From a virus (taxonomy: Duplodnaviria; Heunggongvirae; Uroviricota; Caudoviricetes), in the IMG/VR virus record IMGVR_UViG_3300025693_000001: a DNA stretch of 64,000 bases; one strand, given 5' to 3'. A program made the translations under genes and the position numbers. The notes beneath the pieces were generated by a model that made no database searches, was not told where the DNA came from, and was given only the letters and a program-made list of their open reading frames with translations. Positions 4,545 to 61,834 of the stretch are shown here, one piece after another. The first letter of the stretch is position 1. Each line of letters begins with the position of its first letter.

Positions 4545-4549
4545 ATGTT

Positions 4550-5554: not shown

Positions 5555-5558
5555 TTAG

Positions 5559-5930: not shown

Positions 5931-5945
5931 ATGGTGTTATTTTTG

Positions 5946-24765: not shown

Positions 24766-24776
24766 ATTGTTCCCTC

Positions 24777-24975
24777 GTGTCGTAACACGGATGGTTCCCG
24801 ATAGTGCCACTTTGTGGCTTGTGTCGGGAGGGGAGGTGTGACTACCATTCTTATCTTTCCTCCACCTCCGTGCACAGATGTGGATTCGTCACCATTCTTA
24901 TGTTGTTCCCCCATATGCCGTAGCATGTATGGTTCCCGATAGTGTCAGGTGTTGGGTACGGGATGGGAATAACAC
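24777..24975. repeat. Imperfect direct repeats in the tRNA spacer (shared core ATGGTTCCCGATAGTG at 24791-24806 and 24929-24944; ACCATTCTTAT at 24845 and 24891)
   Basis: About 75% identity between two units of about 60 nt; contains a small hairpin GCCAC-TTT-GTGGC; no ORF supports them as coding. Confidence 0.55.
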
Positions 24976-24990
24976 AAAATTGTTATTTTG

Positions 24991-25065
24991 CTCAACAGGG
25001 AGGAGTCGAACCCCCAATGTCCGGTAGGTGTCAAGCTGCGCATAGTTGCTGACACGTTCTGCTGA
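24991..25065 (-). tRNA. tRNA-like element, fold unresolved (possible pseudogene)
   Basis: Canonical T-arm GGGGG-TTCGACT-CCTCC and an acceptor pairing TCAGCAG/CTGTTGA, but no clean D-arm or anticodon arm; a 7-bp hairpin with a 14-nt loop sits where the anticodon arm should be. Confidence 0.3.
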
Positions 25066-26249: not shown

Positions 26250-26317
26250 TGGAGGTACGGAGAGTTGAACTCCGCCCGGTTGGTTGCAAACCATCCAGTC
26301 TAACCGTATACACCCCC
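26250..26317 (-). tRNA. Short tRNA-like gene (68 nt; anticodon possibly TGC)
   Basis: T-arm CGGAG-TTCAACT-CTCCG and acceptor GGGGGTG/TACCTCC, but a truncated D-arm and a mismatch in the anticodon stem. It lies inside ORF 26227-26427, which is therefore probably spurious. Confidence 0.4.
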
Positions 26318-26655
26318 AGTTGTTGAAATTGTGCTACATATAAATCTTTAAATCTTTTTACATTGCGTTCTCTATCGGTTGGCTTCATCTCGTCAAGCCA
26401 CTCATCCAAGTCCAGCATTGCACACATTCAGAATATCCCATCCTTCGTTGTCACTTCGGTTTTGTCAGCTCGTAAATGAGAGACAAATTCCTCAAGCAGG
26501 TCAGCTAATTCTTCTTCCGAATTTGACATTCTTGCAGAAAATTCACAGCTACATTTGTTATCACCTTCACCGTATGTTATACAGTATCTGGTTTGATTCT
26601 CGATGCCCATGATCTTCGCTAATTCCCCTAATGTATCCATTGCTTTTTCCTTATT

Positions 26656-26730
26656 TGGCTCCCACTCGAGGAATCGAACCTCGCTAAATCTCCTTAACAG
26701 GGAGGTGCCACACCTTGCGGCCCAGTGGGA
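26656..26730 (-). tRNA. tRNA-Asn (anticodon GTT), CCA encoded
   Basis: Perfect acceptor TCCCACT/AGTGGGA; D-stem GCCG/TGGC; anticodon loop CTGTTAA; T-arm CGAGG-TTCGATT-CCTCG. Confidence 0.65.
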
Positions 26731-27200
26731 ATAATCTATTCTCGATGTAGTTCAGCTAAGATTGTTAATCGTTGTTCAGCTAAGTCACCGTGTTCTATTT
26801 TCGTTGTTGCTTCTTGTCCAGTACCTGGATATTTTATTTTAATCAAAATGGCAGCATCTTCACGCCACAATTTTATAATGGTTGGCTTCGGGTCCAACAC
26901 ATCCCATTGGTTAACAATAAACGCCTCATACGAGTTGTATGAGAAGTCCGGAACTGGTAACGTATTATCAAACATTTCTTCTATGGAGTCAACATCAAAC
27001 TTGATAATCAGCTTGCCATTCTTACGAATCTCAACATCGTTATCCGTCTGGATTATCTCAACACCATCCCTTTTCATCCCAACCAATCCATATATGGCGT
27101 TGGTAAGTTCTTTGAAATTGTTGATACCCAGGAATCCTAGGAATCCTATTACAGCTTGCGAAATTGTTAATGTACCTATCATTATTATCCTTTTTGTTTG

Positions 27201-27272
27201 TAGCAGATTTGGGATTCGAACCCAAAACTTCCCACTTATCAGGTGAGCACTCTACCAATTGAGTTAATCCGC
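27201..27272 (-). tRNA. tRNA-Ile (anticodon GAT), no encoded CCA
   Basis: D-stem ACTC/GAGT with loop AATTGGTA; anticodon stem CTCAC/GTGGG with loop CTGATAA; T-arm TTGGG-TTCGAAT-CCCAA. Confidence 0.65.
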
Positions 27273-27959
27273 TATTATTAAAATTAGGTGGAAGAAACTA
27301 ACTTCCACAGTTGTGATGACCACTCGATTTCTGATGTCCCTGATACATACCCAAAGTCGATTGGACTGCCAGCACTCGTGTGCGTTTTTGTAGCTTCATC
27401 TTTCTTTGCTTGCAATTTCTTTCTAGTTTTAGCTTGTATGTTGATGGTGCGTGAAGTCTCGCTCCACTCACCACCACTATACCCACCTCTAGTTATCACA
27501 CCATATGTCATATACATTATTGTCGCACCATTGTTAGTGCTGAGATTTGGGAAAAATCAGGGATTAAGTTACCATTATAAATCAATCTCCAGGTTCCATC
27601 ATCAAGTTCATCCAAATGTATCATGTTCTTTTGTGTTTTTACCGCAGTTGCTTTTGATAGCTCCAACACAATATCTGTTCCAGTTAGTTCAATCGACCGT
27701 TTGTCTTTCATTATATTACCTTTACGAACGTGCCATCTTTAACAGCTTTGCGGATGTATCTCATCAACAGTATTGCCTTCTCTTCGTGGTGAAGGGTAGC
27801 ATCCTGTACATCATCCAATGGAACCGGAAATGAATACTCAATGTTTTCACCTGGAACCAATACACTATAATACACTACTTGGTGTCTATAGTATAGCATG
27901 TTAGCTACATTATTTTTTACAATATCTTTAATACTAAAAGTCATGTTACTTCCTTATTG

Positions 27960-28036
27960 TGGAGCTCCAGTACGGAATCGAACCGTATTCCCAACTTTAC
28001 AAGAGTTGACATCATCCAGATAAATGCTTCAAGAGC
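27960..28036 (-). tRNA. tRNA-Thr (anticodon TGT), CCA encoded
   Basis: Anticodon stem CAACT/AGTTG (perfect) with loop CTTGTAA; T-arm TACGG-TTCGATT-CCGTA; one mismatch in the acceptor stem. Confidence 0.6.
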
Positions 28037-28448
28037 TTATTGTTATTAAATTGTTGTGTATCTTTCTGTGGCAATTAGCACACACGATAACACACTTTTG
28101 TATTTCTTCCAGTAACACCCCCCATCCACATTTCGTGGCAGCGCTGCTAATGTTGAATTTTTTTTGTGTCGGATCTAAGTGGTGGAAATCTAAGCAACAC
28201 AATTCATCTTCACCACAACACACACACCCTGATTGCATCTTCAACGACGTTATGTATGCCTGGCGTTGTTTTGCATACGAATATCGCATGTTGTGATATT
28301 TCTTTGGGTTTTTAGCCCTGGATCCTTTGGTGCTTACATCAGCACACGATTTACAACTAGATTGGTACCCATCCTTCATTCTAACAGCTTTGTAGAATTC
28401 AGTTAACGGTTTATCACTATCACACTTAGTACATTTTTTCATGCCCAT
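28029..28448 (-). CDS. HNH endonuclease
   Basis: CTKCDSDKPLTEF...CKSC...LDFHHLDPTQK...CANCHRKIHN. The ORF track extends to 28487; the likely start is one of the internal ATGs (MGMKKC). Embedded in the second tRNA array. Confidence 0.6.
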   Translation of the reverse strand: MGMKKCTKCDSDKPLTEFYKAVRMKDGYQSSCKSCADVSTKGSRAKNPKKYHNMRYSYAKQRQAYITSLKMQSGCVCCGEDELCCLDFHHLDPTQKKFNISSAATKCGWGVLLEEIQKCVIVCANCHRKIHNNLITISS

Positions 28449-28491
28449 ATTTACGAGTCGAACCATCACCCACAAATACAAATCCATTGTG

Positions 28492-28564
28492 AGCCTTAGA
28501 CTGGAGTCGAACCAGCAACATCTAAATTACGAAATTAGAGCTCTACCATTGGAGCTACTAAGGC
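28492..28564 (-). tRNA. tRNA (anticodon read as CGT; identity uncertain), no encoded CCA
   Basis: Perfect acceptor GCCTTAG/CTAAGGC, D-stem GCTC/GAGC, T-arm GCTGG-TTCGACT-CCAGT; anticodon stem CTAAT/TTTAG with a 31-39 mismatch. Confidence 0.55.
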
Positions 28565-29000
28565 TTATTATCACACCACATATACCAACCGTCATTATCA
28601 AAATGTAGGTTAGGATGTAGTGAGCTTAAAGGTTCCTTTTTCATAACGATTATGGAACCACATTCCGCAACACCATGTTCGATTACTCGTCTGTGTTGCT
28701 TGTTTATTTTTGAAATTATCCGTATTTTCTTTTTCATATATCCGTATATAGTGAAAACCGTTTCCGACTTTGATTAACGAGTGTTTGGCACGGTAAAACA
28801 CCTTTCAGACTTCACTCGAGTACTTGCGATGCCACAGGCGTACTAACCTGCCTTATAATCCTTACTATAAAAGGTTGCGTCTATCTTCCGCACAAGGTTG
28901 CGGTGGGAATGTTCGTAGTAGCTTAGGCTACGATCTAGGCTCCTTTAAGTTGACCGCGTGTTACACATCATCAACCCATCCTCGTGCATGTTGTTCTTAT

Positions 29001-29077
29001 TGGTGGAGCTGGGGGGATTCGAACCCCCGACCCTCTACTTGCAAGGCAGATGCTCGTTCCAGCTGAGCTACAACCCC
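29001..29077 (-). tRNA. tRNA-Ala (anticodon TGC), CCA encoded
   Basis: 5' GGGGTTGTAGCTCAGCTGG..., D-stem GCTC/GAGC; anticodon stem TCTGC/GTAGA with loop CTTGCAA; T-arm GGGGG-TTCGAAT-CCCCC. Confidence 0.7.
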
Positions 29078-37415: not shown

Positions 37416-37868
37416 CTATTTGTGTGATTTTAGATTGCGCAATGTTATTGTCGCATCAGTATCAAGTGTGTTTTCGTCATGGACGCTTTTTTTTGGCTTT
37501 TGCTCTGGTTGTATCTCTCGCTTGGGAAACATTTCTCTCCACCGTTTTTTGATTCGTGAGTTCGCTATGGCTACGTCATCATGCCATTCAAAATCAAAAA
37601 ATATCACCAAAGATGTGACTAATCCAATTACCAATCCTATCATGGCAATTATGATTTCGGGTTGTGTAAACCCTGATATCACTGTAAGCCTGTCGATATC
37701 CTTCGGGTTGTGTGGCACACTAACAACCAAACTGATAAATTGCCATCCAAAACTAATCCAGTACCCTATCACCGGAAAATGTCTACATTCGTTGTGATTT
37801 GACAATGCTACTATTGTGAACGTAATAGTAGTGAGAAAGATCATACATATAAAAAAAGTTAATATCAT
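37416..37868 (-). CDS. Membrane protein (150 aa, 3-4 TM)
   Basis: Hydrophobic helices; stop overlaps the NAMPT start region. Confidence 0.4.
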   Translation of the reverse strand: MILTFFICMIFLTTITFTIVALSNHNECRHFPVIGYWISFGWQFISLVVSVPHNPKDIDRLTVISGFTQPEIIIAMIGLVIGLVTSLVIFFDFEWHDDVAIANSRIKKRWREMFPKREIQPEQKPKKSVHDENTLDTDATITLRNLKSHK

Positions 37869-39289
37869 AATGTGTTAGTTGTGTTGAATCTAGTAGTACG
37901 AACTTCTTCCAATGTTGTAGTTCGCAATATTTTACCATTTAGGTACACAGGAGTGAGCATTTGTTCATCCATTGTTTTTGCCCCAATACAATCTGTTGTA
38001 AATTTACCTGCATCCGAACGGTATAACATTAATTGTCCACGTTTCGAGCGTTTACCGGTATCGGTAATCGGATCTTTGAATACATCGACCCACTCACCAT
38101 TGATAAATGCAGCACTTGCTTTATATGCCCATCTGCCAGTATCTCGATCCAGTTGTTGTAATAACGCACCACCCTGTCCAAATAATACATTTTCCGCACT
38201 GAACTTGTATCCAACCATCTTCGATAATATAGCATCAATGCTTTTGGTTGTAATGCCATCACCTTGCAACACTCGAACATGTTTTAGTACTTTATAGCCT
38301 TTGGTATTACGGATGTAACCGAATGCGGATTCAAGCAACAACATAATTTTTGTTACCACGGTTGCTGGATCACCACTATCAGGTCTGATAACTAGCCACC
38401 CATCACACTCAATAACCAATTCTTTCAGCTCATCACCCCAGATATGTTCAACTGCATTGAAAATATCGTACGAGTCGGATACCACAGAGAATGCGAAGAA
38501 CTTGTCTCCATATTGCTTCAACATATTGCGATATGCTTCTGTCTCCCGTCCCTTGCCCCATGTAGTAATTGAACTGTGTTCGGATGCTGGTACAGATTTT
38601 CCTGACATCTCATGCGAATATTGTCTATTTGCGTGAACTATACCTGGTACATTATCAGATCCTTTGAAATTTACCAAGTGTGCAGCTCCACCAATCATGG
38701 CACTTTCCAGTGAACTAACACCACGCGATCCGAAGTCATGCAACATAAAATCGATAGCATCTTCCTGTTCTTGTCCGGTTAAGTCGGATGTTGATTTCAT
38801 GTAACTCGTAATTACTTTTCTGGTGGTCCAGCTGTTGGTTGCTACTGTAGTTGGATACCACACACCACGTAATATCGATGGTTCGACGTGTGATGGTAAC
38901 CAAAAGCATTTCGGATCAGTATTAACGATAGTAACCAGTGCATTGCTTACCGGTACAACAGTACCTTCCGCCACCGACTTGATTTTTAACGGTAAGTAAC
39001 CGTTGTGCTCTTTTAATATGTGTTGCCATCCTTCTTTGTTGAATGGTTCACCATGAGCAGGCCAGAACAATTCCGCTTCGTCAATCATTTCTTGTGTGAT
39101 TGGTTTGCTCATGTATTCTTGTAAGAACATCTGCAATCCGAAGAATACCGTTTCATCGTATACCCCACCACGCGATTCAATATAGCAGTGAACATACTCA
39201 ATACCAGGGGGATACTGCAACCAATGGCTCGCTTTATATGAATCTGTGTTTAGTAAAATGTTAAAAACTGCGTGTTGTAAAAAGTTCAT
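37865..39289 (-). CDS. nadV: Nicotinamide phosphoribosyltransferase (NAMPT)
   Basis: Collinear with NAMPT across its whole length: FNILLNTDSYKASHWLQYPP, GWQHILKEHNGYLPLKIKSVAEGTVVP, LHDFGSRGVSS, AAHLVNFKGSDNVPG, IRPDSGDP, VLQGDGI, KRSKRGQL. Confidence 0.95.
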   Translation of the reverse strand: MNFLQHAVFNILLNTDSYKASHWLQYPPGIEYVHCYIESRGGVYDETVFFGLQMFLQEYMSKPITQEMIDEAELFWPAHGEPFNKEGWQHILKEHNGYLPLKIKSVAEGTVVPVSNALVTIVNTDPKCFWLPSHVEPSILRGVWYPTTVATNSWTTRKVITSYMKSTSDLTGQEQEDAIDFMLHDFGSRGVSSLESAMIGGAAHLVNFKGSDNVPGIVHANRQYSHEMSGKSVPASEHSSITTWGKGRETEAYRNMLKQYGDKFFAFSVVSDSYDIFNAVEHIWGDELKELVIECDGWLVIRPDSGDPATVVTKIMLLLESAFGYIRNTKGYKVLKHVRVLQGDGITTKSIDAILSKMVGYKFSAENVLFGQGGALLQQLDRDTGRWAYKASAAFINGEWVDVFKDPITDTGKRSKRGQLMLYRSDAGKFTTDCIGAKTMDEQMLTPVYLNGKILRTTTLEEVRTTRFNTTNTL

Positions 39290-40053: not shown

Positions 40054-41091
40054 TTACAACCGTCCCAACATATCAAAAATAATATCGTAGTGATCTTCAA
40101 ACAATTGATCGCGCATTTCTTTAATTGTGGTAATCGGAATCCATTGTGCTTTTTCAGCATCATCGCTTCCTTTCACTTTTGGAAGTCCACCTGGTGGTAA
40201 TTCGATACCGTAAGCATGTGTTATAGTTCTACCCCGTAAACTTCGGGCAGGGTGATCGTACACCTCTTGTATTTTGATATTCCCCCGTAATATAGGATCG
40301 GGCACCTTAATTTTAGTCTCTTCTCTTAATTCCCGTAACATAGCATCAATGAGAGTCTCGTTTGGATTTACAAACCCCCCGACAATAGCCCACAATCCTT
40401 TTCCTGGAGCCGATCGCCGTTTTACCAATAACACGTGTCCTGATTGCACCACTACAGCATCAACTGTCACGAAGATTGGTTCATATGGAGCTACAGCCCA
40501 AGCGGATTTATATTTCTGTATAAATTCATATTCATATTTCAGTTGTTCGAAGATAGGTTTTAGCTTCCATGCCAACAAGTATTCGTGAATAGCTTTTGGT
40601 AATGTTGGCATAACTTGTTTGCTGAAAAAGTCTGTTGAGTGTTCAAACAAAGCGACACGGATGTCAGTTGCGTGCAAGTCGTTGATATTAGGAACCTCAA
40701 CATGCTTCCATTGAGGAAACATTTTTAAGTAGAATGATGTGTCATCTTTAGTGTGACCGATCATTCCGATGTGGCTTCCTTCGGTGCTTAACGTTTCGAC
40801 CATTTTTTGGACTTGTGTAACCCAACGTTGATTGTTGTAAGCATCATCCGCAATGGGTGCAAATTGTACTCTGAGTTTTTCGCTATGAGATAGCGAGTTG
40901 CTGATCATTTCCGCACGTTCTTGCCATGACCAAGGATTTTTGATTGTCTTTGGTTGAAATGACGATCCGATTAGTATTATAACATTTTTGGATTGTTGTA
41001 ACGCAATTTTGATTGTTTCGATGTGTGCCAAGTGAGATGGCTGAAATCTACCAATGTACACGAGGTAGTCGTATTGTTCTTCTGTATTCAT
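40054..41091 (-). CDS. nadM: Bifunctional NMN adenylyltransferase / Nudix hydrolase (NadM-like)
   Basis: N-terminal YLVYIGRFQPSHLAHIE ((H/T)xGH-type nucleotidyltransferase motif); C-terminal Nudix box GGFVNPNETLIDAMLRELREETKI. Confidence 0.9.
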   Translation of the reverse strand: MNTEEQYDYLVYIGRFQPSHLAHIETIKIALQQSKNVIILIGSSFQPKTIKNPWSWQERAEMISNSLSHSEKLRVQFAPIADDAYNNQRWVTQVQKMVETLSTEGSHIGMIGHTKDDTSFYLKMFPQWKHVEVPNINDLHATDIRVALFEHSTDFFSKQVMPTLPKAIHEYLLAWKLKPIFEQLKYEYEFIQKYKSAWAVAPYEPIFVTVDAVVVQSGHVLLVKRRSAPGKGLWAIVGGFVNPNETLIDAMLRELREETKIKVPDPILRGNIKIQEVYDHPARSLRGRTITHAYGIELPPGGLPKVKGSDDAEKAQWIPITTIKEMRDQLFEDHYDIIFDMLGRL

Positions 41092-41699: not shown

Positions 41700-42456
41700 A
41701 CTGACCTACCGGATAACATTGTTTAGAATCTTTACAGGCATATAGCATCCCCGATGAATGTGTTACTAATTTAATTGGTTTAAAAATTATTGGTGCTTCG
41801 TCTTTTAGTGATGGGTCGCTTGTTGCTATTTGTCCATCATCACCTTTAAACAGATATATTGGTGTTTTGCTTCGTATGCGATTGCTTAGGTATTCGGTTT
41901 TAAACCGTCTACCTTTGGTGTTCACTTGTTTTAGTGTTTGGACTGCATCTTCTGATTTTGTTGAAGTTGAACTAGTGACACTGATGTTATCACCGACAAA
42001 CGAAAAGAACATAAATGCTACGAATATCCCAACAAACAAACTTTCGGTAAATATCCAAACCACCACGAAGATGACACAAGTAACCAACACAAAACCTGTG
42101 TTTACTGAAGAGCTATCATCACTATCGGTGGTTTGTTCCACCACTTCCGATATGTCAGCCTTAACGTCTGGTCGTAATTTGCTCATGTCTGCTTTCACAT
42201 CAGCTTTGATGGCATTCAATTCCCGCTTCGTGTCATCTTGGATGGTTTTTATATCTTGTGTTATAGCGATTGGTGTTTCCGGTATGACAGCATCCATGTG
42301 AATATTCGCAGCAGCCCACCCAACGAACACACCAGTTCCGATAACGTACAGTATCAATGGCATATCCAACTCCAGTAAGAAATCAAAAAACATAGTGCCA
42401 ACAATTAATGCAAAGTACAGCAGAATCATAGTTCCCATCATTTCACCCGATAACAA
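41692..42456 (-). CDS. Membrane protein with charged central segment (254 aa)
   Basis: Two N-terminal and two central TM helices; repeated KADxxK segment. Confidence 0.45.
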   Translation of the reverse strand: MLSGEMMGTMILLYFALIVGTMFFDFLLELDMPLILYVIGTGVFVGWAAANIHMDAVIPETPIAITQDIKTIQDDTKRELNAIKADVKADMSKLRPDVKADISEVVEQTTDSDDSSSVNTGFVLVTCVIFVVVWIFTESLFVGIFVAFMFFSFVGDNISVTSSTSTKSEDAVQTLKQVNTKGRRFKTEYLSNRIRSKTPIYLFKGDDGQIATSDPSLKDEAPIIFKPIKLVTHSSGMLYACKDSKQCYPVGQYE

Positions 42457-42713
42457 GTATCAACATCAATGGCATCACACGCATATAGTGTTCCATCTGA
42501 GTGTTGTTTTAGTGTAACTTCTTTGTGACTGCGTTTTTTATTTGGTAGGTACTCACGGACAATATTCTCTTTTGATTTGAATACGGGAGGATTACTAGTT
42601 GTACCTTTACGCTCTTCCATTTCCTTCACCGCAGGGATAACGATTGATGCTAATATACCGATGATTGTTACCACAATCATCATCTCAATTAATGTGAAGC
42701 CTTTTTGTTTCAT
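42438..42713 (-). CDS. Type IV pilin / pseudopilin-like protein (prepilin N-terminal methylation motif)
   Basis: MKQKGFTLIEMMIVVTIIGILASIVIPA is the classic prepilin signature: a short basic leader, G followed by FTLIE, then a hydrophobic helix. The ORF track starts earlier (42791); the ATG at 42713 is favoured. Confidence 0.65.
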   Translation of the reverse strand: MKQKGFTLIEMMIVVTIIGILASIVIPAVKEMEERKGTTSNPPVFKSKENIVREYLPNKKRSHKEVTLKQHSDGTLYACDAIDVDTCYRVK

Positions 42714-42792: not shown

Positions 42793-43047
42793 CTACGAAA
42801 ATACCATCCAGGCGAAGTATGCGTTCGTTATCACGTAAGACAAACCCACCGACATAACCAGAAATACGATAACAAATAGCACAGGCAATACACCTTGTAT
42901 GCTCAATGATGCTATTCGTTCGTATCTACCACCATACTTGCCTATGAACCCATTTCGGTAATCATTAAATAGGGTAGCCCACCAGACAACTAGGAATCCA
43001 TTAACGATTCCTAGAACCAATACCATAAGGAACAATAATGTATTCAT
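42793..43047 (-). CDS. Small two-TM membrane protein (84 aa)
   Basis: Two hydrophobic helices. Confidence 0.4.
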   Translation of the reverse strand: MNTLLFLMVLVLGIVNGFLVVWWATLFNDYRNGFIGKYGGRYERIASLSIQGVLPVLFVIVFLVMSVGLSYVITNAYFAWMVFS

Positions 43048-45023
43048 TATAACAACTGCATGAAGTCTTCAACTGTAATGATCTTTTTGCTTAGATCTCT
43101 GGCTTTCTTTAGTTTACCACTCGCACCGTTCACATCAACGGTCACAACGAGATCGGTGGTTTTGCTAACACCACTCTGTACTGTACCACCTTTCGACTCC
43201 ACAGCAGCTTGAAGTGGTTTATCACGAAAGCCGGTGAAGCATATTTTCATCCCAGCTAATTTAGCATCGGTTGGTGTTGCACTTTCAAGTGTTACCAGAT
43301 GCTTAACGATGGGGAAAAAGTCATTGAATGCGTTTATAGCGGCCATGGCGCCCGTAGCGGTGATGGTATCAAAGCCATCCAACGATTTGATCGATGATAT
43401 TGATTGGTTGGTGGTAAAGTTACCACCAACTGCTAGCTCAACCTTACGCATCTTTCGTATACCAATTCCACGTTGATTTGAGTGTGCACCTACTAGCTTG
43501 TGTAGTGTAATACCATTTAACTTTTCGTGAATGCTTTTGAATACTTTTTTCCCATTCTCACCCAGCACACCAACCAATTCAGCTTCGGTCATTGTTAGTA
43601 TCGATTCGGGTGTGTCAATTTTGCTATCAACTAATTTCGTTACATTGCCCATACCAAGAAACGCAATATCTAGTTTATCAAAGAAATCATATAACTGCTT
43701 GATTAATATGATGGAATGGTTGCTAATGTCGACTACCTTTGCATCCACACCGTCCCCTTTGTCTGTGGTAGACCAGGTCCAAACGCCGAACTGATCCATT
43801 TGATCATTGAACCACAAGTTGTATTCGTCATCAGACATTTCGTCGGTCTGTCCCAAAATCTTTGTTACATTAGGAACCACATCCCCCATACGAGAGATTG
43901 CCACTTTTGTGCCTGGTCTGATTTTGTTTTCTAGTAAGTATTTGGCGTTTAGGGCTGTAGCATGAACGATAGTAACACCGACCAGATTAACAGGTTTAAC
44001 GTGAAATCGTGGTTTTATGAATCCGTGTTTGGATAATCTCAGTTCAATCCAAGTAACTTCCGTTTCTGCGTAATTATCAGCATCTGTCGTTTTGTACTTA
44101 AATGAATATGATGGATTGAGGGCAGCAGCATTTGGACTGAGTCTCACACGCTCTAATTCGTCATCAACATCAACAACAATACCATCGATTTCATATTCAG
44201 CTTTCTCTTTTCGTTCTGTTAGGTATGCAATTAAGTCTGGATCATTCAGATCCCTACCCATCCGCGTTGCCAGAACGGGAACTTTAAAGCCGTACTCCAT
44301 TAGAGTATACAGCATTGCTGTTTTACTAAGAGTAACACCAACGATTTGGTATGATACGAATTTGAGAAATGAATACACGATATCCGGATTTGTTTTTGAA
44401 TTCATCAACCCTGCAACCATATTGCGAGCGTTTTTGTATTCTAAGCCCTGACGAGTAAACACTTTAGTTTTCAGGACATCAAACCCTTCTTTTGTTAGAA
44501 TGATTTCACCACGAATAGCCAACGATGTTGGGTGTGGTATTGATTTTGGTACAATTTTTGATAGGTGACGAGAAATATCCGCACCTTCCGTACCATCCCC
44601 ACGACTATAACCAATTTGAAACGGTTCATCGTTACCAGGATAGATTGCCATCGCACTAACACCGTCAAGTTTGTCGGTTATAACAAATCGTGATGTTGTT
44701 AATCGGTTATCAGAAACCCAAGCTTCTACATCATTCTCGAATATTTGGTTTAGACTGCCCATTTTATGTGGCAGTTTTACTTTACCACCACGGACAGCAC
44801 TTCCAACCCCAGTAAAATATACGTGGTGAGGAACGGAGAGTTGCAATTTGCGGCGTAGGATGTCGTATTGTGTGTCTGTTAGTGTTAAATCACCATCAGT
44901 ACTGTTGGCATATTCATCGTCGGCAGTCATTAGAATATCAATTAATTCCTGGGTTGAATGCTCTTCGATCAGTGTATCAATTAATTCGGTTGTGGATTTT
45001 GCTGCATCTGTGATAAAACTCAT
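43047..45023 (-). CDS. ligA: NAD+-dependent DNA ligase (LigA type)
   Basis: KxDG adenylation motif as ITDKLDGVSAMA at about residue 118 (E. coli K115); 658 aa; C-terminal BRCT-like KICFTGF...VSKTTDLVVT...SGKLKKA. Confidence 0.85.
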   Translation of the reverse strand: MSFITDAAKSTTELIDTLIEEHSTQELIDILMTADDEYANSTDGDLTLTDTQYDILRRKLQLSVPHHVYFTGVGSAVRGGKVKLPHKMGSLNQIFENDVEAWVSDNRLTTSRFVITDKLDGVSAMAIYPGNDEPFQIGYSRGDGTEGADISRHLSKIVPKSIPHPTSLAIRGEIILTKEGFDVLKTKVFTRQGLEYKNARNMVAGLMNSKTNPDIVYSFLKFVSYQIVGVTLSKTAMLYTLMEYGFKVPVLATRMGRDLNDPDLIAYLTERKEKAEYEIDGIVVDVDDELERVRLSPNAAALNPSYSFKYKTTDADNYAETEVTWIELRLSKHGFIKPRFHVKPVNLVGVTIVHATALNAKYLLENKIRPGTKVAISRMGDVVPNVTKILGQTDEMSDDEYNLWFNDQMDQFGVWTWSTTDKGDGVDAKVVDISNHSIILIKQLYDFFDKLDIAFLGMGNVTKLVDSKIDTPESILTMTEAELVGVLGENGKKVFKSIHEKLNGITLHKLVGAHSNQRGIGIRKMRKVELAVGGNFTTNQSISSIKSLDGFDTITATGAMAAINAFNDFFPIVKHLVTLESATPTDAKLAGMKICFTGFRDKPLQAAVESKGGTVQSGVSKTTDLVVTVDVNGASGKLKKARDLSKKIITVEDFMQLL

Positions 45024-45125: not shown

Positions 45126-45551
45126 ATGACTCAACCAACAATAGCCGATTATCAAGTTGACTTAACAGAGAGCTTGAAAGGTAAGATAGATTTAAACGAC
45201 ATCAAAGATGTAAGTGCCCCCGGACCTGCAGATGGTGAAGCATTGGTGTGGAATAACACAAACGCGAAATGGGAGTCTAGCATTTCTGCACCAGGTACAC
45301 ATTACATAGAGGTGACTGGAGCAGGTGTTGGTACAGTATTACCAGGCGGTTGGTCTGTTGTACGTGATAGTGCAGGAGTATACACGATAACACACAACTT
45401 GGGCAATTCGACGTTGGGATATGCAATCATGCAAGCTGATGCTGTAGCTATTGCTCAGTCTAGTAGTATAACAGCTACGACTACTAATACGTTTACTATA
45501 ACATTTAGTAGTGCAACTGATACTGATTTTGCTGGTCGTGTGATTACTTAA
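45126..45551 (+). CDS. Late-promoter-driven small beta-rich protein (141 aa), possibly virion-associated
   Basis: Late box plus Shine-Dalgarno; Thr/Ser/Gly-rich composition. Confidence 0.45.
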   Translation: MTQPTIADYQVDLTESLKGKIDLNDIKDVSAPGPADGEALVWNNTNAKWESSISAPGTHYIEVTGAGVGTVLPGGWSVVRDSAGVYTITHNLGNSTLGYAIMQADAVAIAQSSSITATTTNTFTITFSSATDTDFAGRVIT

Positions 45552-46309
45552 CTCACAGCATTTTCGTAATTGGTCATGCTGTGGTCTGATATTGATGGAG
45601 TACCATCACCATTACCAAGTTGCGATAACTCCACTGGGTGGTGGTAATAGAAAGGAAATGCAAACGGTACCATTGGTACGATGTCATCCTCGTAACGGTA
45701 TATTGTTATGGGAAATCGTACTGATGTATCTTCATTGTGTCGTTGTTTATTGTACACGAAGGTACGAGGACAAGCAAATCCAACATATTCAACAACCTCA
45801 TATCCATCATGTTTTAATAACATTCCTACGATAAGTGCTAGTGCCGCTCCAAGTGAATGTCCAGTTAGCACTACAGGCTTGTCTTTGTATATGTGAGACT
45901 TCAAGTCTTCAGTGATCCGTACAGCGCCTTTGAGAAAACCAGAATGTGCCCAACCTAACACTGGATGGTACCAAGGAATAAAGCGCATGTCGCGTATAAC
46001 ATCCATAAATCCCAAACCGGAGATTAATTGGCCTCCTTCTGTTCCTCGTATTGCTATAACTTGCTGGTCTTTCTTTAGTTCCACTAACACTTCACACTCG
46101 TTTGTCGAGAAAGTGTATGCGTCGTAGCTACGTGCAGCTGCTCGTGCTAATTCTTTGTGTGTAATTTGTTCCATTGCTATACTCCTGATAAAAACGTATT
46201 TAGGATTCACCACCATAAATACCAGGACAAGCACGATAACAATGATGTTATCATTTACACGGAATGAGGAAGGAAATTCATGGCTGATAATCACGATAGA
46301 CGCAATCAA
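45548..46309 (-). CDS. Class 3 lipase (alpha/beta hydrolase)
   Basis: VVLTGHSLGAALALIVG nucleophile elbow GHSLG. Confidence 0.8.
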   Translation of the reverse strand: MIASIVIISHEFPSSFRVNDNIIVIVLVLVFMVVNPKYVFIRSIAMEQITHKELARAAARSYDAYTFSTNECEVLVELKKDQQVIAIRGTEGGQLISGLGFMDVIRDMRFIPWYHPVLGWAHSGFLKGAVRITEDLKSHIYKDKPVVLTGHSLGAALALIVGMLLKHDGYEVVEYVGFACPRTFVYNKQRHNEDTSVRFPITIYRYEDDIVPMVPFAFPFYYHHPVELSQLGNGDGTPSISDHSMTNYENAVS

Positions 46310-55591: not shown

Positions 55592-55612
55592 AAAAAAAAG
55601 GCCGTGAGGCCT
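55592..55612 (-). terminator. Rho-independent terminator
   Basis: GGCC-GTGA-GGCC hairpin directly after the TAA stop of the 55613-56164 gene, followed on the minus strand by TTTTTTTT. Confidence 0.6.
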
Positions 55613-56164
55613 TTATGTATCGCAACCAAGTTTGGCTGCTTCGTGCTTATCGTGGACGTGTCCGTAGAATACCAGACACGTCCACGGTATTTTGTGAGCG
55701 TACTCTCGAATCAAGTCGTGGGATAGTTTGTTTTTACCCATTGGCAACCGTTCCCACCATATATTAAAATGCCACTTGCGTATGAAATCGTCCGACATCA
55801 CTTGGTATTGTGATATGAAACACCACGTAACGCGGTGGTAATTTTGAGCAATCACATCTTCTGTTAGTGTTTGGTACTGACTAACCAATTCCCAATTAAC
55901 GCTATCTTCGAATTCTATTATAAAATCAATAGATAGCGTTTGAAATTTGCTAACAGTGGTCCAATCAATAACATCTGCATGTTCTCGCATAAACGATTCG
56001 GATAGCATATTTGTGGAACATATCGCCGTCCAGTTATATGTCTTCTCTAGCTCATCTAGCGATGTGATCAAATCAACCACACAAATATCTCGTAGCTTCG
56101 GTTGTACAGTGGGTACAGTGGGATTCTGGGATAGGTGTATCGAAATCATCACCATCACCATCAT
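55613..56164 (-). CDS. Repeat-containing protein (three copies of an about 16-aa VS(K/Q)(F/Y)QxLSxDFI motif)
   Basis: VSKFQTLSIDFI / VSQYQTLTEDVI / ISQYQVMSDDFI seen in the translation. Confidence 0.4.
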   Translation of the reverse strand: MMVMVMISIHLSQNPTVPTVQPKLRDICVVDLITSLDELEKTYNWTAICSTNMLSESFMREHADVIDWTTVSKFQTLSIDFIIEFEDSVNWELVSQYQTLTEDVIAQNYHRVTWCFISQYQVMSDDFIRKWHFNIWWERLPMGKNKLSHDLIREYAHKIPWTCLVFYGHVHDKHEAAKLGCDT

Positions 56165-56426: not shown

Positions 56427-56852
56427 TTAAGCCTTATCGACATTGAGTGCCCACCATGGTGTGTTGGTTAAATTGTCCAGAACTGTATGTAAAAACGCTA
56501 ATTCATCGATTGCCAACGATAGCGATTGCTTATCAGATACAACTCTGGTGCGATTGGGCTCACCCATTGTTTGTCTGTTGAGGTACCAGGCAGTATATGG
56601 TGTACCATCACATGATGCAGCCCCTACGTATTCGGCAATGGGGCAATATTGACACAACGACTGATGTTGTAACATGAATGCTTGGCAACAAGCACAATCG
56701 GTGTGACCCCCATCCGCTTTATTTTCGAATATGATGCCATTCCATTTGGCTATCGATGACTGTAGCGCTTGCCGTTGGGAACTGCGATGATGGATGATAA
56801 GTATCCACCACCCAACAGCAAAGCCCAACAACAACGATATCAGGATACCCAC
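56427..56852 (-). CDS. Membrane-anchored Cys-rich protein
   Basis: One TM, then a CACCQAF...CQYCP...SCDG cluster. Confidence 0.35.
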   Translation of the reverse strand: MGILISLLLGFAVGWWILIIHHRSSQRQALQSSIAKWNGIIFENKADGGHTDCACCQAFMLQHQSLCQYCPIAEYVGAASCDGTPYTAWYLNRQTMGEPNRTRVVSDKQSLSLAIDELAFLHTVLDNLTNTPWWALNVDKA

Positions 56853-57305
56853 TATTCCAGCTCTTTCATTATCGCTTCCAATTCCATTTCACGACGTTGT
56901 TCTGGTGAGATGATAGCTTCTAACCGTGTTTCCAATTCAAGCAACTTGCGTTTTTTTGATTTGATATGAATAGATGCTATCCGTTTTTTGAAATCATCAA
57001 CCCAATCATCCAATTCAAACCCACAAACCTGTGAGGATACATCAAGGCCCAAAATGATGGCTGCTTTTGTTTCATAGTCACGCGTCATTAACATTTGGGA
57101 GTATACGTCTAGTATGGTTGCTTCGCATGCTACTTGAATGTTAATTGGTTGTGCTACCCCATCACGCGTGAATGAGCAGTTCGTTTTCCATGATCGTTTA
57201 ATTTTTGTTTCATCCGCGTCTACGCTTTTTTTGCGCTTCATGAGCGTATCGAATAATGTTTTTATTTGTTTATCTAATTGTTCATTGGCCATTTTAATAT
57301 TATTC

Positions 57306-58496
57306 CTATGTTTTGTTGGGGATTGTGTTCCCATTTTCTAATACGATATGCAGATCACCATACCCCATTTCGATCAATCCAGCAAATATGTTTTCGCGTG
57401 TGGCTTTTGTAACATCAATGTCAGCATCTCGTAGCATTGTACGCAGTTGTTGTGTTACGTTCTGTTGGTATGTTTCCAACAACCGTCGCTTATCGGATAT
57501 CCGGTTGTAGTAATTATAATTTGTCCGAGCTGAATTAAATAACACTCGAATCAAATGTCCATCTTCGTCGGTTTTGATGTCGTCGAAGGATATCGAGATT
57601 GGTTGTCGTTCCAGGTTAGTTGTGTTCTGCCCATACGCGTACAAGTACGCCTTGATAATTCGATCATCTTCAATCTTGTGCAGTTCAACGTATGATCGAT
57701 TGGAAACATCCTGGGTGGCAGCACTTCTCACTACAAACGATTTTATACGTTGGGAGTTTGATGTGTGGAAGTATTTATCGATTAAATCGGCGACGTTACT
57801 TACTTCACTCGTGCTTATTTCGTGACTCAGCGTTGTTGCAGGGGTTGGAAAGAATGTACCAGCACTATTAACAAATATGTGTTTTTTGCCTTTATCCTTT
57901 TGGTATCGCTGTTGATCGATGTCAGAGCTGTAACCATACTTATATTCTGATGTAAGCCATGGAAACCTACCAATGTATGTTAGTATTCCGCTGTGTTTCT
58001 TTTGACCGTATTGTCGACCAACAACAAGATCACGAGCGCTTACTTTGAGTGATTGTTTAGCTGTGTACTCGACTGATTCGGTATATTCAACGGAGTTTGT
58101 TGGTAGTAATACCAAGTCAGCACCACTCCAAGCAAACACACAATCTTCGACGATATCGCGTTTTGATACATCACTGTGCATCAACAAACCGATTAAGTTG
58201 TCAACTGATATTTCAAACTCAAAGTCGCGTGGATCGTACACACGGATAACACTACGACCGCTACCCCAATGCCCATCCCGCTTGACACCTTTGTTGAAAA
58301 TGTAGCCATTGCGTGGATCGTTGTCGATTTCCAGTGTGGTTATAGAATCGTCGCACCACCCTGTCCACGATTTTTCTTTTCTAATCTTACCTTTTTCGTC
58401 ATAATAGATGACGTATGCTAACATACCAGTAAACGTATCACTACGCTTTCTAAAACCTACGCGAATTTTTGAAGGTATAAATAAATTGGTTTTCAT
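57306..58496 (-). CDS. Hypothetical protein (396 aa), first gene of a 6-gene translationally coupled operon
   Basis: Start/stop overlaps chain 57306-58496, 58493-58885, 58882-59238, 59241-59663, 59664-60218 and 60218-60613. Confidence 0.45.
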   Translation of the reverse strand: MKTNLFIPSKIRVGFRKRSDTFTGMLAYVIYYDEKGKIRKEKSWTGWCDDSITTLEIDNDPRNGYIFNKGVKRDGHWGSGRSVIRVYDPRDFEFEISVDNLIGLLMHSDVSKRDIVEDCVFAWSGADLVLLPTNSVEYTESVEYTAKQSLKVSARDLVVGRQYGQKKHSGILTYIGRFPWLTSEYKYGYSSDIDQQRYQKDKGKKHIFVNSAGTFFPTPATTLSHEISTSEVSNVADLIDKYFHTSNSQRIKSFVVRSAATQDVSNRSYVELHKIEDDRIIKAYLYAYGQNTTNLERQPISISFDDIKTDEDGHLIRVLFNSARTNYNYYNRISDKRRLLETYQQNVTQQLRTMLRDADIDVTKATRENIFAGLIEMGYGDLHIVLENGNTIPNKT

Positions 58497-59663
58497 TTTG
58501 TTGCCTTATCAGTTATGGATAATCCGATGACATTTAAGTGACCATCACATTTCACACCATTTGCATCTTTATTGCAGATCAACGCTATCGATAGGTCAAT
58601 GCTAGACGTACCATGATTTAAAATGTGGGTCTTGAATATAGCACCATTTGGTGTGTCGTATAGATGCATATCACATACCAGTGCATCATCGGTGCACCTT
58701 ACGTTTTTAGCTGAACCGACTATACGGTATATGTCTATTTCAGTAGAATTGAGGTTTTGTTGGATGAACACTTCTCGAACTACATTTTGACACAACTCTT
58801 CTATATGCTCTGCATGACATCTAGTCAATTTTAAGTTAGATGTGTCATCATCATATTTGAAAATTATTACATTGTCAACAATCATGTGGATACTCTAGCC
58901 AGAGCGGAATCCAGGACTTCATCGAAGCTGCCACCGCCGTTATAAAATAATAGTTGGTATTCGATGGTTCCATCTTCTTTTTCTTGTGAGCGTGAAAATC
59001 CATATTCATCTAGCTGTTCGTTTTCGATTCGATATATTTTTCCATTGTGTATGTGAGCAAATTTGTTATCAAATGCACCCATGTTGTGTTTCATATAATC
59101 CAACCACGACGTGGTAAAATCATCGAAGTCTCTATCCGTCACACCAAGAGCCTCCAAATGAAATTTTGCAGTAGCTTCCAGGGTTTCTTTTTGTTCGATT
59201 GGAATTAGCCTACCGAAGTGACACTCATTGTCGCTCATTTTTATTCCTTAGTGATAATCAATATTCTAGCAACCTGATCAGGAGATAAACCAGTCAGGTC
59301 TAGTGTTAGTGTTGGTGGTCGTTTCTCGGAACGTGATTGCACTAAATCGGTAGTACTGTCTAGCTCATCCAGTTGTTGTTGATAATCTTGCAATATAGAT
59401 GATGCAATGTCTTGTACCTGTGTTGGAGTACTAACAAAACAATCAACCCCCCTAACTGTAACAATAACACCAGAACCATCATGCAGTAACATACAACGGT
59501 ATTGTATGTTGTGTGTTAGAATTAGTGTGGTGTTTGAATCAGTCGCTGGTCCACCTCGGTGTGTTACTTGTAGATCCGTTGGGTCGATTAGGTTGTCACG
59601 TATTGTGGAGCATATAGCATCTAACGTTAGTGAGTTCATTGTATTTGTATTTAATGTTTGCAT

Positions 59664-60218
59664 TTAAAATGGTAATGGGTTGTCATTGAATTGATCTCGA
59701 ACAGCCATCCATGCGAAGCCTAACACGTTCTCACCTTCCCACTCTTCTACGGTTAGCTTTTTAGCTCGAGCTGCATATGTACCAATACCGAGAACAGTAT
59801 CATACGTACTAGCACCAACGAGGATATCTTCACCAGTTGCCATCAAAGTGTCCATAACTTCACGGTGTTGGATAGCCTTGAGCACATTTATACGTACCAA
59901 GACGTTAAATAGGTGTTCGCTCCACTGTTCTTTATCAATCCCAACGACTTTAGCTTTCATGTCAATTGGTCTGGTGATCTTCATAATAGCATCTGCTGTG
60001 GCTACATCACCAAACATCAATGCTTTTGTAACAACCATTGCTTGTTCACCACAATTGAATGTTCGTGTACCATCAGTGATAGAGTGTGGACTCCACAAAT
60101 TTAAGCAACCTAGTGGTGTGGGTTGTTTATAGAAGTCAGTAACACCCCAAAAATAACTAAAGGTTGGTTCAAATCCATTCCGTATTGCTTGGATGAGTTC
60201 TTTTTTTGTGTTCATCAT
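59664..60218 (-). CDS. NADAR-family (YbiA-like, DUF1768) protein
   Basis: ...NCGEQAMVVTKALMF..., ...DTVLGIGTY...GENVLGFAWMAVRDQF against YbiA TSEHYFQAQKF...DAYWGDGGHG...NRLGYLLMELREQL. Confidence 0.75.
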   Translation of the reverse strand: MMNTKKELIQAIRNGFEPTFSYFWGVTDFYKQPTPLGCLNLWSPHSITDGTRTFNCGEQAMVVTKALMFGDVATADAIMKITRPIDMKAKVVGIDKEQWSEHLFNVLVRINVLKAIQHREVMDTLMATGEDILVGASTYDTVLGIGTYAARAKKLTVEEWEGENVLGFAWMAVRDQFNDNPLPF

Positions 60219-61198
60219 TATCCTCGTGATTCTTGTAATAGTTGACGTAGTTGTCTGATTGTTAAATCCTTCACCAAGTAAGAATCTGGTAGTGGTGATA
60301 ATTCAGGTGGCAACAACGAATGTGAAGTATCTTCCAGTTGGTCAATGAAACGTTGGACATCGTCTTCGGTCTTTATAACGAATGTGCCGGATGGTAAACT
60401 GATATCCACCGTGCCATCGGTGTAATCGAGTGATACCTGCAATTTGTATGTAGGAAATTCGATGATGCGAGTGTTCGTGCTTATGCCACAAACTGCCACA
60501 TTAGCGTCGTGTGGTAGTTTGTGGCATAGTAACGTCATCAATCCGCTAACGTGTTCTTCTGTTTTCATTTCTTGGTTCTCCAGAACATCACAGTTTCGAT
60601 AATTGTCAAACATAAGCTTGTGAACAAATCTACAATAAATTCAGCCATTTTCAGTATTTCCTATAAAAGTGTGTATATCTTTGCATGCCTGGTCCGCTTC
60701 TTGTTGTGTGTCGATAACCCACTCACTTCTAGCTAACATGACAAGTATTTTTTGGTCGACGTAGAAGCATCTAGCAAACATACCATGTCCACAATCAACC
60801 ATGTATATATCATACCCCGGTAACACATGGTAGTCAAGCCCCAATTGTTCAATGAACCGTTCAATTGGTACATCACTCATAACCGAACATATCTCCAAAT
60901 GCAGTAACTTCGGTTAATCGTATTGCTGATGTGTGTGAAATTACGACTTTTTCCCAATACGATGCACCTTCTTCGAATTTCCAGTCGTTTTCGGGACCGA
61001 GCTCAGATAGCAAATTAAAAACGTCAACAGGTATATATTTGTCACGAATTTTTCCAAGAATGTTAGCCATGTGTTTGAAGTATTCTTGTTCTGTACCATC
61101 TTGAAAGTAACTAGCGGCATACACTTCTTTTAACGATACGTCCGCAGTGTTACCTTTGCAGGCTTCGATGATGATTTGTTCTATGGTTTTGGTTGCAA

Positions 61199-61834
61199 TC
61201 ATTTTTGTGTTCCGGTTAATACATCAGCTATTGATGATACTGGTTTTACGTCAAGGTGTAGTGGGGATGTTGAAGCTCCACATACTTGTTTGATCTTAGT
61301 AAGATGCTCATCGGTGCACCGGCCTTTGTGTATGACACAGACTTTACCAATGATTAAATCCCCTATTGCCTCTCTGGTGATTGGGTGATCAACTAAATGT
61401 AGCATCTCATTAGTATCAAATGTTATCTCGTGGTAAAAGCAACTTAACGATGATGCTGTCTGCTCAACCAAGATGTGATTGATATCCGTATCCAAGTATA
61501 TTAGATCAAATGTAACATCACCCAGTGTGCATACGATTCTGCCGTGTTGGTGTTCCATCATATATTTGGTTGAATCTGGATTTTCGGGGTGGGGTGGGTC
61601 GTCTTGGTCGTATCGAATTTTGTTATCGACTGTATCGAATAATTGAGCTAGTAGTATATCGGTTACCCATTGCTCCATACGTCGTGGACCACAAATAAAC
61701 ACATCAATGTCATTGTAGTTATATTGGGGCATCACTAAATGTCGACCGTATGATCCACCAACATATACACCTGAGGTGTATGCTGCTCGGATCATTTCCA
61801 GACCTTTTTGTATATTGTCGTTTCGTTTGTTCAT
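61199..61834 (-). CDS. Nucleotidyltransferase-fold protein (Pol-beta / minimal NTase superfamily)
   Basis: VYVGGSYGRHLVMPQYNYNDIDVFI fits [GS]x(9-13)DhD. Confidence 0.5.
   Translation of the reverse strand: MNKRNDNIQKGLEMIRAAYTSGVYVGGSYGRHLVMPQYNYNDIDVFICGPRRMEQWVTDILLAQLFDTVDNKIRYDQDDPPHPENPDSTKYMMEHQHGRIVCTLGDVTFDLIYLDTDINHILVEQTASSLSCFYHEITFDTNEMLHLVDHPITREAIGDLIIGKVCVIHKGRCTDEHLTKIKQVCGASTSPLHLDVKPVSSIADVLTGTQK

Follow-up and report, generated by a model that had tools for sequence, protein, structure and literature searches.

The window analysed here, 64,000 nt in full, belongs to a jumbo phage with a genome of about 325 kb and contains a run of small genes around NADAR184, which encodes a 184-aa NADAR-family protein (Table 1). 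An initial annotation had described this gene and five neighbours as a six-gene translationally coupled operon, and all six ORFs are indeed present at the coordinates it gave, on the minus strand, which that annotation did not give. In the order g131, NADAR184, g140, g118, g130 and g396, their junctions are a 1-nt overlap, a 0-nt abutment, a 2-nt spacer and two 4-nt overlaps. The limits of the operon did not hold, however, as the run of junctions of ≤30 nt comprises 11 genes on the minus strand (61834 to 56427) and junctions of this kind recur throughout the window, with 32 of the 71 same-strand junctions overlapping and 42 of 71 at ≤30 nt.

Table 1. Features of the NADAR184 locus, in window coordinates (aa, amino acids; nt, nucleotides)
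Feature	Coordinates	Strand	Description
g211, g109, g79	60641..61834	minus	Upstream part of the same tight chain; junctions -4, -26/-8 and 27 nt
g131	60218..60613	minus	131 aa, orphan; 1-nt overlap with the NADAR184 start
NADAR184	59664..60218	minus	184 aa, NADAR family, predicted ADP-ribosyl glycohydrolase
g140	59241..59663	minus	140 aa; lineage-restricted backbone gene, also present without NADAR
g118	58882..59238	minus	118 aa, phrog_6035 (E 2.4e-14); backbone gene
g130	58493..58885	minus	130 aa; least supported of the six ORFs, varies across relatives
g396	57306..58496	minus	396 aa, phrog_2475; opens a conserved two-gene module
g146	56852..57292	minus	146 aa, helical, phrog_2574; conserved partner of g396
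g141	56427..56852	minus	Downstream continuation of the tight chain; 1-nt overlap with g146; homologs in L003 and L004 only
Intrinsic-terminator-like hairpin and T-run	55597..55614	minus	AAAGGCC-TCAC-GGCCTTT then TTTTTTCG, right after the g183 stop codon

A packed array and its neighbouring genes

The hairpin at 55614-55597 is the sole convincing minus-strand terminator and likely marks the 3' end of the transcription unit. Promoter-like sites were not enriched (27 found against 31 expected) and that scan was uninformative; Rfam and tRNA scans of the 54-64 kb region found nothing. A GAGG Shine-Dalgarno motif lies 5' of NADAR184, and such a motif is missing for g131.

Three related loci are referred to below: L007, a close relative whose NADAR is 64% identical to that of the window, and L003 and L004, which have no NADAR. 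Upstream in the chain, g211 is conserved in all three and has a Pol-beta nucleotidyltransferase-like GS...DxD motif, with a weak match to Pfam Pox_polyA_pol (E 0.092). The five partners had been described as free of recognisable motifs, which stands for Pfam but not for PHROG, where g396 and g118 match families 2475 and 6035. PADLOC and NCBIfam scans of all partners gave nothing significant, and they do not appear to be ordinary structural proteins, as no partner matched an annotated virion protein.

The gene g140 had no match in Pfam, PHROG or PADLOC, and its homologs occur only in L003, L004 and L007. Its start is ambiguous, with 83 aa given by the original gene caller, however, the 140-aa form is favoured because the homologs align from residue 12-21 onward. 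The product of g118 is 54% identical to its counterparts in L003/L004 and 50% identical to that in L007, and tblastn returned weak matches to T4-like phages of Aeromonas and Vibrio; assignments to AriB/DUF4435 or Globin were rejected with matches below the family thresholds. For g130 there was no Pfam or PHROG family match; it is absent from L007, and its sole counterpart in L003/L004 is the C-terminal half of a fused ORF of 249 aa, which it matches weakly (E 2e-4). A search of 5.8e9 proteins with g131 found only g131 itself, and an exhaustive phmmer search of 1.8e9 representative proteins gave one real homolog, P0122, which in L007 likewise directly precedes a NADAR gene, overlapping it by 4 nt. 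The two genes flanking NADAR184, g131 and g140, were also considered as paralogs and rejected (BLASTP E 0.2, hhalign probability 0.2%).

NADAR184 and the NADAR superfamily

The NADAR homology proposed initially was confirmed by profile searches. NADAR184 matches Pfam PF08719 at 104.5 bits (GA 35.1, E 9e-30), covering profile positions 2-162 of 163, and NCBIfam TIGR02464, the YbiA-type model for riboflavin biosynthesis intermediates N-glycosidase, at 88.2 bits against a cutoff of 73.7. It also matches PDB 8bau by sequence (E 6.6e-8) and falls below the cutoff of NCBIfam NF053876 DS32_2, a NADAR-family anti-phage defence protein (18.7 bits against 240). E58, K65 and D140 are invariant in an alignment with Escherichia coli YbiA and T4 gp30.3, which is known as AdfN (Johannesman et al., PMC11257639, Nat Commun 2025). 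The E58/K65 pair, 7 residues apart, corresponds to the catalytic E36/K43 of AdfN, where E36/K43 mutation abolishes function (PMC11257639). Judged by its sequence, the 184-aa protein is a genuine NADAR with an intact catalytic Glu/Lys pair.

In the D-x-x-W-G-x-G motif of NADAR184, D140 and G-I-G are kept and the Trp is replaced by Leu, giving LGIG in place of the conserved WGIG. The same change is present in the L007 ortholog, and the second NADAR of the phage keeps WGIG. This substitution counts against the role that we favour for NADAR184 below.

BLASTP places NADAR184 closer to YbiA (E 1e-6, 23% identity) than to AdfN, to which no similarity was detectable (E = 7); because of this lack of BLASTP-detectable similarity, we assign NADAR184 to a different NADAR family from AdfN, although both are small standalone phage NADARs. 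In comparison with YbiA, NADAR184 is extended by about 25 aa at its N-terminus and carries an 11-residue insertion near its C-terminus, and it is a phage gene outside the LexA-controlled dinG-ybiB context with no riboflavin-enzyme fusion. A further difference from T4 is that the window phage has two NADAR paralogs. The second, of 175 aa and 5 kb upstream of NADAR184, scores 176.8 bits against PF08719 and resembles YbiA (BLASTP E 7e-13, 29% identity), with no detectable relation to T4 gp30.3 by BLASTP (E = 56). A duplicated NADAR module was considered and rejected, as this paralog has no g131-, g140- or g118-like neighbours. NADAR184 is therefore best described as a new, divergent, non-T4-type addition to the already known class of standalone phage NADARs.

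Co-occurrence and synteny of the neighbouring genes

The five neighbours and the NADAR had been proposed to form a new system, and co-occurrence was tested both ways, in 84 loci with the g396 family and in 80 NADAR-centred viral loci. The outcome was negative in both directions. A NADAR lies within 10 kb of the g396-family gene in 5 of the 84 loci, on varying sides, with offsets of -1.4, +1.5 and +3 kb in the unrelated g396-family loci, and none of the 80 NADAR-centred loci contains any of the ten neighbouring families. A search of IMG/VR for relatives starting from the single NADAR protein confirmed none and an alignment was used instead; a megablast of 6 kb against INPHARED gave no match, and the phage is therefore without a close relative that has been annotated. 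Synteny of g140–g118–g130-like–g396–g146 is preserved in the closest NADAR-less relative, with the NADAR and the orphan g131 missing. L003 and L004 retain g211, g140, g118, a g109-g130 fusion, g396, g146 and g141 without NADAR, g131 or g79. Since the neighbours are syntenic without NADAR and g131 in a relative, NADAR184 occupies a variable accessory slot.

These data largely refute the view that the NADAR is the centre of one undescribed multi-component system, made up of all six genes, for anti-defence or ADP-ribose processing. In favour of that view, the six genes point the same way with little or no space between them, the five partners are all of unassigned function, and gene order and content are partly the same in L007. 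However, the partners persist in order where the NADAR is absent, g130 is missing from L007, the few NADAR genes near g396 take inconsistent positions, the partner families never appear around other NADARs, and the chain is really one of 11 genes with junctions of a kind found throughout the window. T4 offers a direct comparison, with adfN belonging to a similar run of genes (30 to 30.6) that overlap by 1-8 nt, yet AdfN alone is necessary and sufficient (PMC11257639). We consider such a system highly improbable; the five neighbours are most likely unrelated passengers and not partners of NADAR184.

A smaller version of the idea concerns g131, the only neighbour described as co-varying with NADAR184, which could have been acquired jointly with it as a two-gene cassette in which g131 is a subunit that confers specificity, targeting or regulation, while the remaining four genes are unrelated. 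The window and L007 have both genes and L003/L004 have neither, and outside L007 no g131 homolog was found among the 1.8e9 representative proteins. Because g131 co-varies with the NADAR gene and overlaps it in each of its two lineages (1 nt in the window, 4 nt in L007), the cassette retains some plausibility. However, only one independent presence/absence event is involved, in closely related phages, and shared ancestry therefore explains the pattern equally well. The same distribution is shown by g79, no g131-like neighbour occurs in any of the 80 other NADAR loci or beside the upstream paralog, g131 has no Shine-Dalgarno motif, and characterised phage NADARs act alone (PMC11257639). On this balance the cassette is improbable. 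The same low standing is given to a combination of two readings, in which g131-NADAR184 is a lineage-specific counter-defence cassette whose orphan modulates or directs a YbiA-like NADAR and, as a separate matter, g396 and g146 form an ancient two-protein module, possibly acting on nucleic acids, that could represent a new host-takeover or counter-defence mechanism.

Probable nucleobase de-ADP-ribosylation and the g396-g146 pair

Phage NADARs have been shown to strip ADP-ribose from guanine in DNA and thereby defeat DarTG1, in agreement with the activity cited in the initial annotation (PMC11257639; PMC11125620). In vitro, each of the four NADAR families acts on G-ADPr; every family tested, the YbiA type included, hydrolyses it on DNA and RNA, and YbiA-type enzymes hydrolyse C-ADPr as well (PMC11125620; PMC12945103). 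In vivo, DarTG1 is countered by each of the three phage NADARs tested, among them the divergent non-T4 NADAR(Bas32) and NADAR(Bas60), which may be the best functional analogy for NADAR184 (PMC11257639). According to Iyer et al. (PMC9503650), >48% of medium and jumbo phages carry a NADAR, which is typically a standalone gene of the early class. It should be noted that outside infection T4 AdfN and YbiA did not rescue cells from DarT1 (PMC11125620), and sequence is therefore no guide to specificity in vivo.

Against this background, NADAR184 probably reverses nucleic-acid ADP-ribosylation, as suggested by its family and catalytic residues, and the explanation that we think likely is that of a standalone enzyme acting alone against nucleobase ADP-ribosylation, with its neighbours not being partners. 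NADAR184 would be expressed early in infection, would suffice as a single gene and would cleave ADP-ribose from nucleobases, the leading candidate substrate being the guanine N2 adducts (G-ADPr in DNA) that DarT1-type host toxins make. By analogy with T4 AdfN and the Bas32 and Bas60 NADARs, this removal would restore replication. The gene itself occupies a hypervariable accessory slot between the conserved g211 and g140, in an array of at least 11 tightly packed co-directional genes.

A different substrate also has to be weighed. Because NADAR184 passes the YbiA-type model and has no BLASTP similarity to AdfN, it is conceivable that it targets small molecules such as riboflavin intermediates, ADP-ribose-derived immune signals or toxic metabolites, in cooperation at genome level with the NAD+ salvage genes (NAMPT, NadM-Nudix) and with Macro and Nudix proteins. 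The phage carries a wider NAD/ADP-ribose toolkit of NAMPT, NadM-Nudix, an NAD-dependent ligase, a Macro domain protein and the second NADAR, which also speaks for the explanation favoured above, and in 8-9 of the 80 NADAR loci there is a NAMPT or NadM-Nudix gene no more than 6 kb from the NADAR. However, in this phage NAMPT and NadM-Nudix are about 20 kb from NADAR184 and are therefore not its neighbours; activity on G-ADPr in every family tested and the uniform anti-DarTG1 activity of the three phage enzymes also speak against small molecules, and we regard this reading as rather unlikely, though the strongest of the alternatives.

Finally, NADAR184 may be compared with DarG1, the NADAR antitoxin of DarTG1, which belongs to the same superfamily with the same predicted chemistry. 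No DarT1 or other ADP-ribosyltransferase (ART) toxin gene is adjacent to NADAR184, however, which makes it an orphan antitoxin-like gene and not a toxin-antitoxin module. It could still be an antidote to an ART of the phage itself, for self-protection or temporal control, as T4-like phages express NADARs early along with ARTs (Iyer et al., PMC9503650) and in T4 about 3 kb separate gene 30.3 from alt. Pfam found no ART or DarT domain in genes next to NADAR184 or in window ORFs of ≥110 aa (64 kb of about 325 kb), and we hold the antidote reading to be very unlikely.

The only truly coupled unit of the stretch is the pair formed by g396 and g146, the latter outside the region initially annotated, and it is separate from NADAR184. 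Their families are present in 82 and 80 of 83 non-redundant loci, respectively, and the two genes are adjacent (overlapping or within 30 nt) in 74 of the 82 loci with both, whereas no other real family around g396 is common to more than about 10 loci. The pair is thus kept as adjacent co-directional genes despite the turnover of all other neighbours, and it is spread over Herelleviridae, jumbo phages and megaphages. Members of phrog_2475, a very large uncharacterised phage family, and phrog_2574 include Bacillus phage W.Ph. gp153, Listeria phage P100 gp62 and Synechococcus phage BUCT-ZZ01 UTS52113/UTS52112, which show the same adjacent-pair arrangement, and no member of either family has an assigned function or solved structure. 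Both predicted folds are confident, g396 being a basic protein rich in beta-barrels and g146 its helical partner; no known structure matched, and profile searches of the two families against PDB sequences found nothing.

The locus is a concrete example that, in phage early-gene arrays, overlaps in the style of translational coupling cannot be taken as evidence for a functional system. With its two divergent NADAR paralogs, the phage enlarges the known set of orphan antitoxin-like counter-defence genes from jumbo phages. The very widespread phrog_2475 and phrog_2574 pair may prove more useful than the original claim, and it could be studied in tractable phages of Bacillus, Listeria or Pseudomonas.

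The gene chain and its genomic setting

The initial annotation proposed that a NADAR-family gene and five partners (57306-60613) form an undescribed six-gene anti-defence or ADP-ribose processing system, an observation that is real but mis-delimited, with the system itself not supported. All six ORFs, named here by amino acid length, are present exactly at these coordinates and all are on the minus strand, NADAR184 being the 184-aa NADAR-family protein. The junctions from g131 to g396 are, in order, a 1-nt overlap, an abutment, a 2-nt spacer and two 4-nt overlaps. Shine-Dalgarno-like motifs lie upstream of NADAR184 (GAGG), g118 (AGGA) and g396 (AAGG), and none was detected upstream of g131 or g140. 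The original metagenome gene caller assigned g140 only 83 aa; the 140-aa form is supported by homologs in related contigs, since their alignments begin at residue 12-21. The weakest ORF of the six is g130.

Features in and just beyond the window, with coordinates and strand
Feature	Coordinates	Strand	Remarks
g211	61199-61834	-	
g131	60613-60218	-	first of six in transcription order
NADAR184	60218-59664	-	second
g140	59663-59241	-	third
g118	59238-58882	-	fourth; phrog_6035
g130	58885-58493	-	fifth
g396	58496-57306	-	last; phrog_2475
g146	56852-57292	-	phrog_2574; beyond the initially proposed interval
g396-g146 pair	56852-58496	-	
NAMPT	37865-39289	-	NAD/ADPr toolkit
NadM-Nudix, bifunctional	40054-41091	-	NAD/ADPr toolkit
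NAD-dependent DNA ligase	43047-45023	-	NAD/ADPr toolkit
NADAR paralog, 175 aa	L002:4591-5118 (+), about 65.1-65.6 kb	-	just past window end
Gp23-like ORF, 133 aa	3156-3557	-	inside tRNA cluster
HNH endonuclease ORF	3925-4404	-	inside tRNA cluster
Nucleoside 2-deoxyribosyltransferase-like	18225-18677	-	accessory
HD_4 domain	22002-22436	-	accessory
ORF with pilin-type N-methylation motif	42438-42713	-	accessory
Class-3 lipase	45548-46294	-	accessory

With a junction limit of 30 nt, the real chain comprises 11 genes rather than six, from g211 (61834) to g141 (56427), and is the longest among several such runs within the window, where 32 of 71 same-strand junctions overlap and 42/71 measure 30 nt or less. 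Promoter-like sites show no enrichment (27 against an expected 31). On the minus strand a single terminator is convincing (55614-55597), a hairpin, AAAGGCC-TCAC-GGCCTTT followed by a T-run, located directly 3' of the g183 stop codon. This hairpin probably marks the 3' end of a long transcription unit containing NADAR184. T4 gene 30.3, encoding the anti-DarT NADAR AdfN, also lies within a chain (30, 30.1, 30.2, 30.3, 30.4, 30.5, 30.6) with overlaps of 1-8 nt, and yet AdfN by itself is necessary and sufficient to defeat DarTG1 (PMC11257639). As AdfN acts alone despite this arrangement, tight junctions are no evidence of a system.

The source of the window is a jumbo phage: its proteins are also found on a 324,905-bp contig, and the closest isolates, judged by Rnl1, are 309-349 kb phages of Vibrio, Xanthomonas, and Stenotrophomonas. 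About three quarters of the ORFs are on the minus strand, as are all 14 tRNA genes, which form two clusters (2176-6018 and 24069-29077) of a kind typical of large virulent phages. Inside a tRNA cluster, an ORF adjoining an HNH endonuclease ORF matches the T4 Gp23 major-capsid profile at positions 148-195 only (28.7 bits vs. GA 24.4); this is possibly a fragment of a capsid gene or a homing-endonuclease-linked remnant, and Rfam found no intron. A batch Pfam scan of the window ORFs also detected an RnlB-type antitoxin (E 2.5e-18) and a thioesterase.

Conservation of the neighborhood

The six-gene system fails in both directions, as comparisons of close relatives, g396-centered loci and NADAR-centered loci were all negative. 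L007, the closest relative (NADAR 64% and g396 79% identical to the window), has the order g211, g79, an 88-aa ORF, g131, NADAR, g140, g118, g396, g146, and lacks g109, g130, and g141. Loci L003/L004, with g396 at 49% identity, carry g211, two unrelated small ORFs, g140, a 134-aa ORF, g118, a g109-g130 fusion, g396, g146, and g141, but no NADAR, g131, or g79; the partners therefore keep their synteny without NADAR. The fused g109 and g130 homologs form one 249-aa ORF, and the g396 ortholog of L007 (L007:3071-4254) is split into two ORFs (269 + 94 aa), a split that may reflect a frameshift, a pseudogene or faulty assembly. The slot that NADAR184 occupies, bounded by g211 and g140, is variable. 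Its upstream edge, g211, is conserved in L003, L004, and L007; g211 has a GS...DIDVF motif that recalls nucleotidyltransferases of the Pol-beta fold and weakly matches Pfam Pox_polyA_pol (E 0.092).

Iterative profile searches of all ORFs within 10 kb of g396-family genes (84 loci, 79 from IMG/VR, the rest from other sources) found a NADAR in only five, namely the source contig, L007, and three others with NADAR at -1.4, +1.5, and +3 kb. NADAR is present in >48% of medium and jumbo phages (PMC9503650) and the 20-kb search window covers ~6-13% of such genomes, which by rough estimate puts 5/84 at about chance level. Conversely, none of 80 NADAR-centered IMG/VR loci (±6 kb) carries g131, g140, g118, g130, g396, g146, g141, g211, g109, or g79. 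The recurring neighbors there (Dda-like helicase, Nudix, HD, GIY-YIG) are ordinary T4-like lineage synteny, and NAMPT or NadM-Nudix lies near NADAR in 8-9 of the 80, in line with Iyer et al. (PMC9503650).

No neighbor of NADAR184 matched an annotated virion protein, so there is no sign that the partners are ordinary structural proteins. Both g140 and g118 were found only within this phage lineage. The sub-threshold matches of g118 to DUF4435 (Pfam E 0.015) and PADLOC AriB (E 0.0026) cover the same ~60 residues and, though mutually consistent, are probably noise; in the PARIS defence system AriB acts as the effector, and an AriB-like fragment in a phage, if real, deserves a second look. Among 5.8 billion proteins g131 matched only itself, and an exhaustive search of 1.84 billion representative proteins gave one real homolog, in L007, directly upstream of NADAR and overlapping its start. 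This recurrence would fit a two-gene cassette of g131 and NADAR184, a reading we consider quite improbable, given that it derives from one presence/absence event among close relatives and that g79 has the identical pattern.

The gene that truly partners g396 is g146. Its family occurs in 82/84 g396-family loci, in 74 of those 82 starting within 30 nt of the g396 stop or overlapping it, whereas the next real families are each common to no more than about 10/83 non-redundant loci. Across 83 diverse large-phage loci, about 80 keep the pair, with all of the remaining neighbors turning over. Both proteins are confidently folded by structure prediction; the helical g146 (pLDDT 91.7) gave no informative structural match and g396 matched no solved structure. 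Within its first ~210 residues g396 has numerous invariant Arg and Lys, which suggests, speculatively, that it binds nucleic acid. This widely conserved two-gene module, unrelated to NADAR184, deserves mention in its own right.

Identity and probable role of NADAR184

The NADAR assignment was upheld by profile search (Pfam PF08719, E 9e-30, 104.5 bits vs. gathering score 35.1), and NADAR184 also matches the solved NADAR structure 8bau by sequence (E 6.6e-8) and NCBIfam TIGR02464, the YbiA-type N-glycosidase family (88.2 bits vs. 73.7). When NADAR184 is aligned with its paralog, the L007 ortholog, E. coli YbiA, and T4 gp30.3, its residues E58, K65, and D140 are invariant; the first two correspond to AdfN E36 and K43, at either of which alanine abolishes counter-defence (PMC11257639). 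The WGIG motif is LGIG in NADAR184 and the L007 ortholog and is kept in the paralog. With no similarity to AdfN detectable by BLASTP and weak similarity to YbiA (E 1e-6), NADAR184 falls in a non-T4 branch, as do the Bas32 and Bas60 NADARs, which were independently co-opted by phages and each also act alone against DarT1 (PMC11257639). Cytidine-ADPr is also hydrolysed by YbiA-type and general NADAR families (PMC11125620, PMC12945103). Pfam detected no ART or DarT domain in the genes near NADAR184 or in any window ORF of at least 110 aa, and NADAR184 is therefore an orphan antitoxin-like gene rather than part of a toxin-antitoxin module.

The main rival explanation, which we regard as unlikely, is that NADAR184 works on small molecules, riboflavin intermediates or ADPr-derived signals being candidates. 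The TIGR02464 match is consistent with this, as is the phage's rich NAD/ADPr toolkit, which includes a Macro domain protein (Pfam batch scan, E 8e-5) and the NADAR paralog. A single 204-aa ORF separates NAMPT from NadM-Nudix, with the DNA ligase nearby, an arrangement that resembles the NAD+ reconstitution pathway of NARP2 type in phages (Osterman et al. 2024). In phage BUCT-ZZ01, NAMPT and NadM-Nudix are likewise paired, ~2.3 kb from its g396-g146 homologs. The paralog, about 5 kb upstream of NADAR184, scores 176.8 bits against Pfam NADAR, shares 35.6% identity with NADAR184 and retains the catalytic E/K pair; none of its neighbors is similar to those of NADAR184.

Judged by its sequence, NADAR184 adds a new and divergent protein to an existing class, that of the standalone phage NADARs. 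Most likely, it would be expressed early and act as a single-protein glycohydrolase, removing the ADP-ribose with which a DarT1-like toxin of the host would have modified phage nucleic acid.
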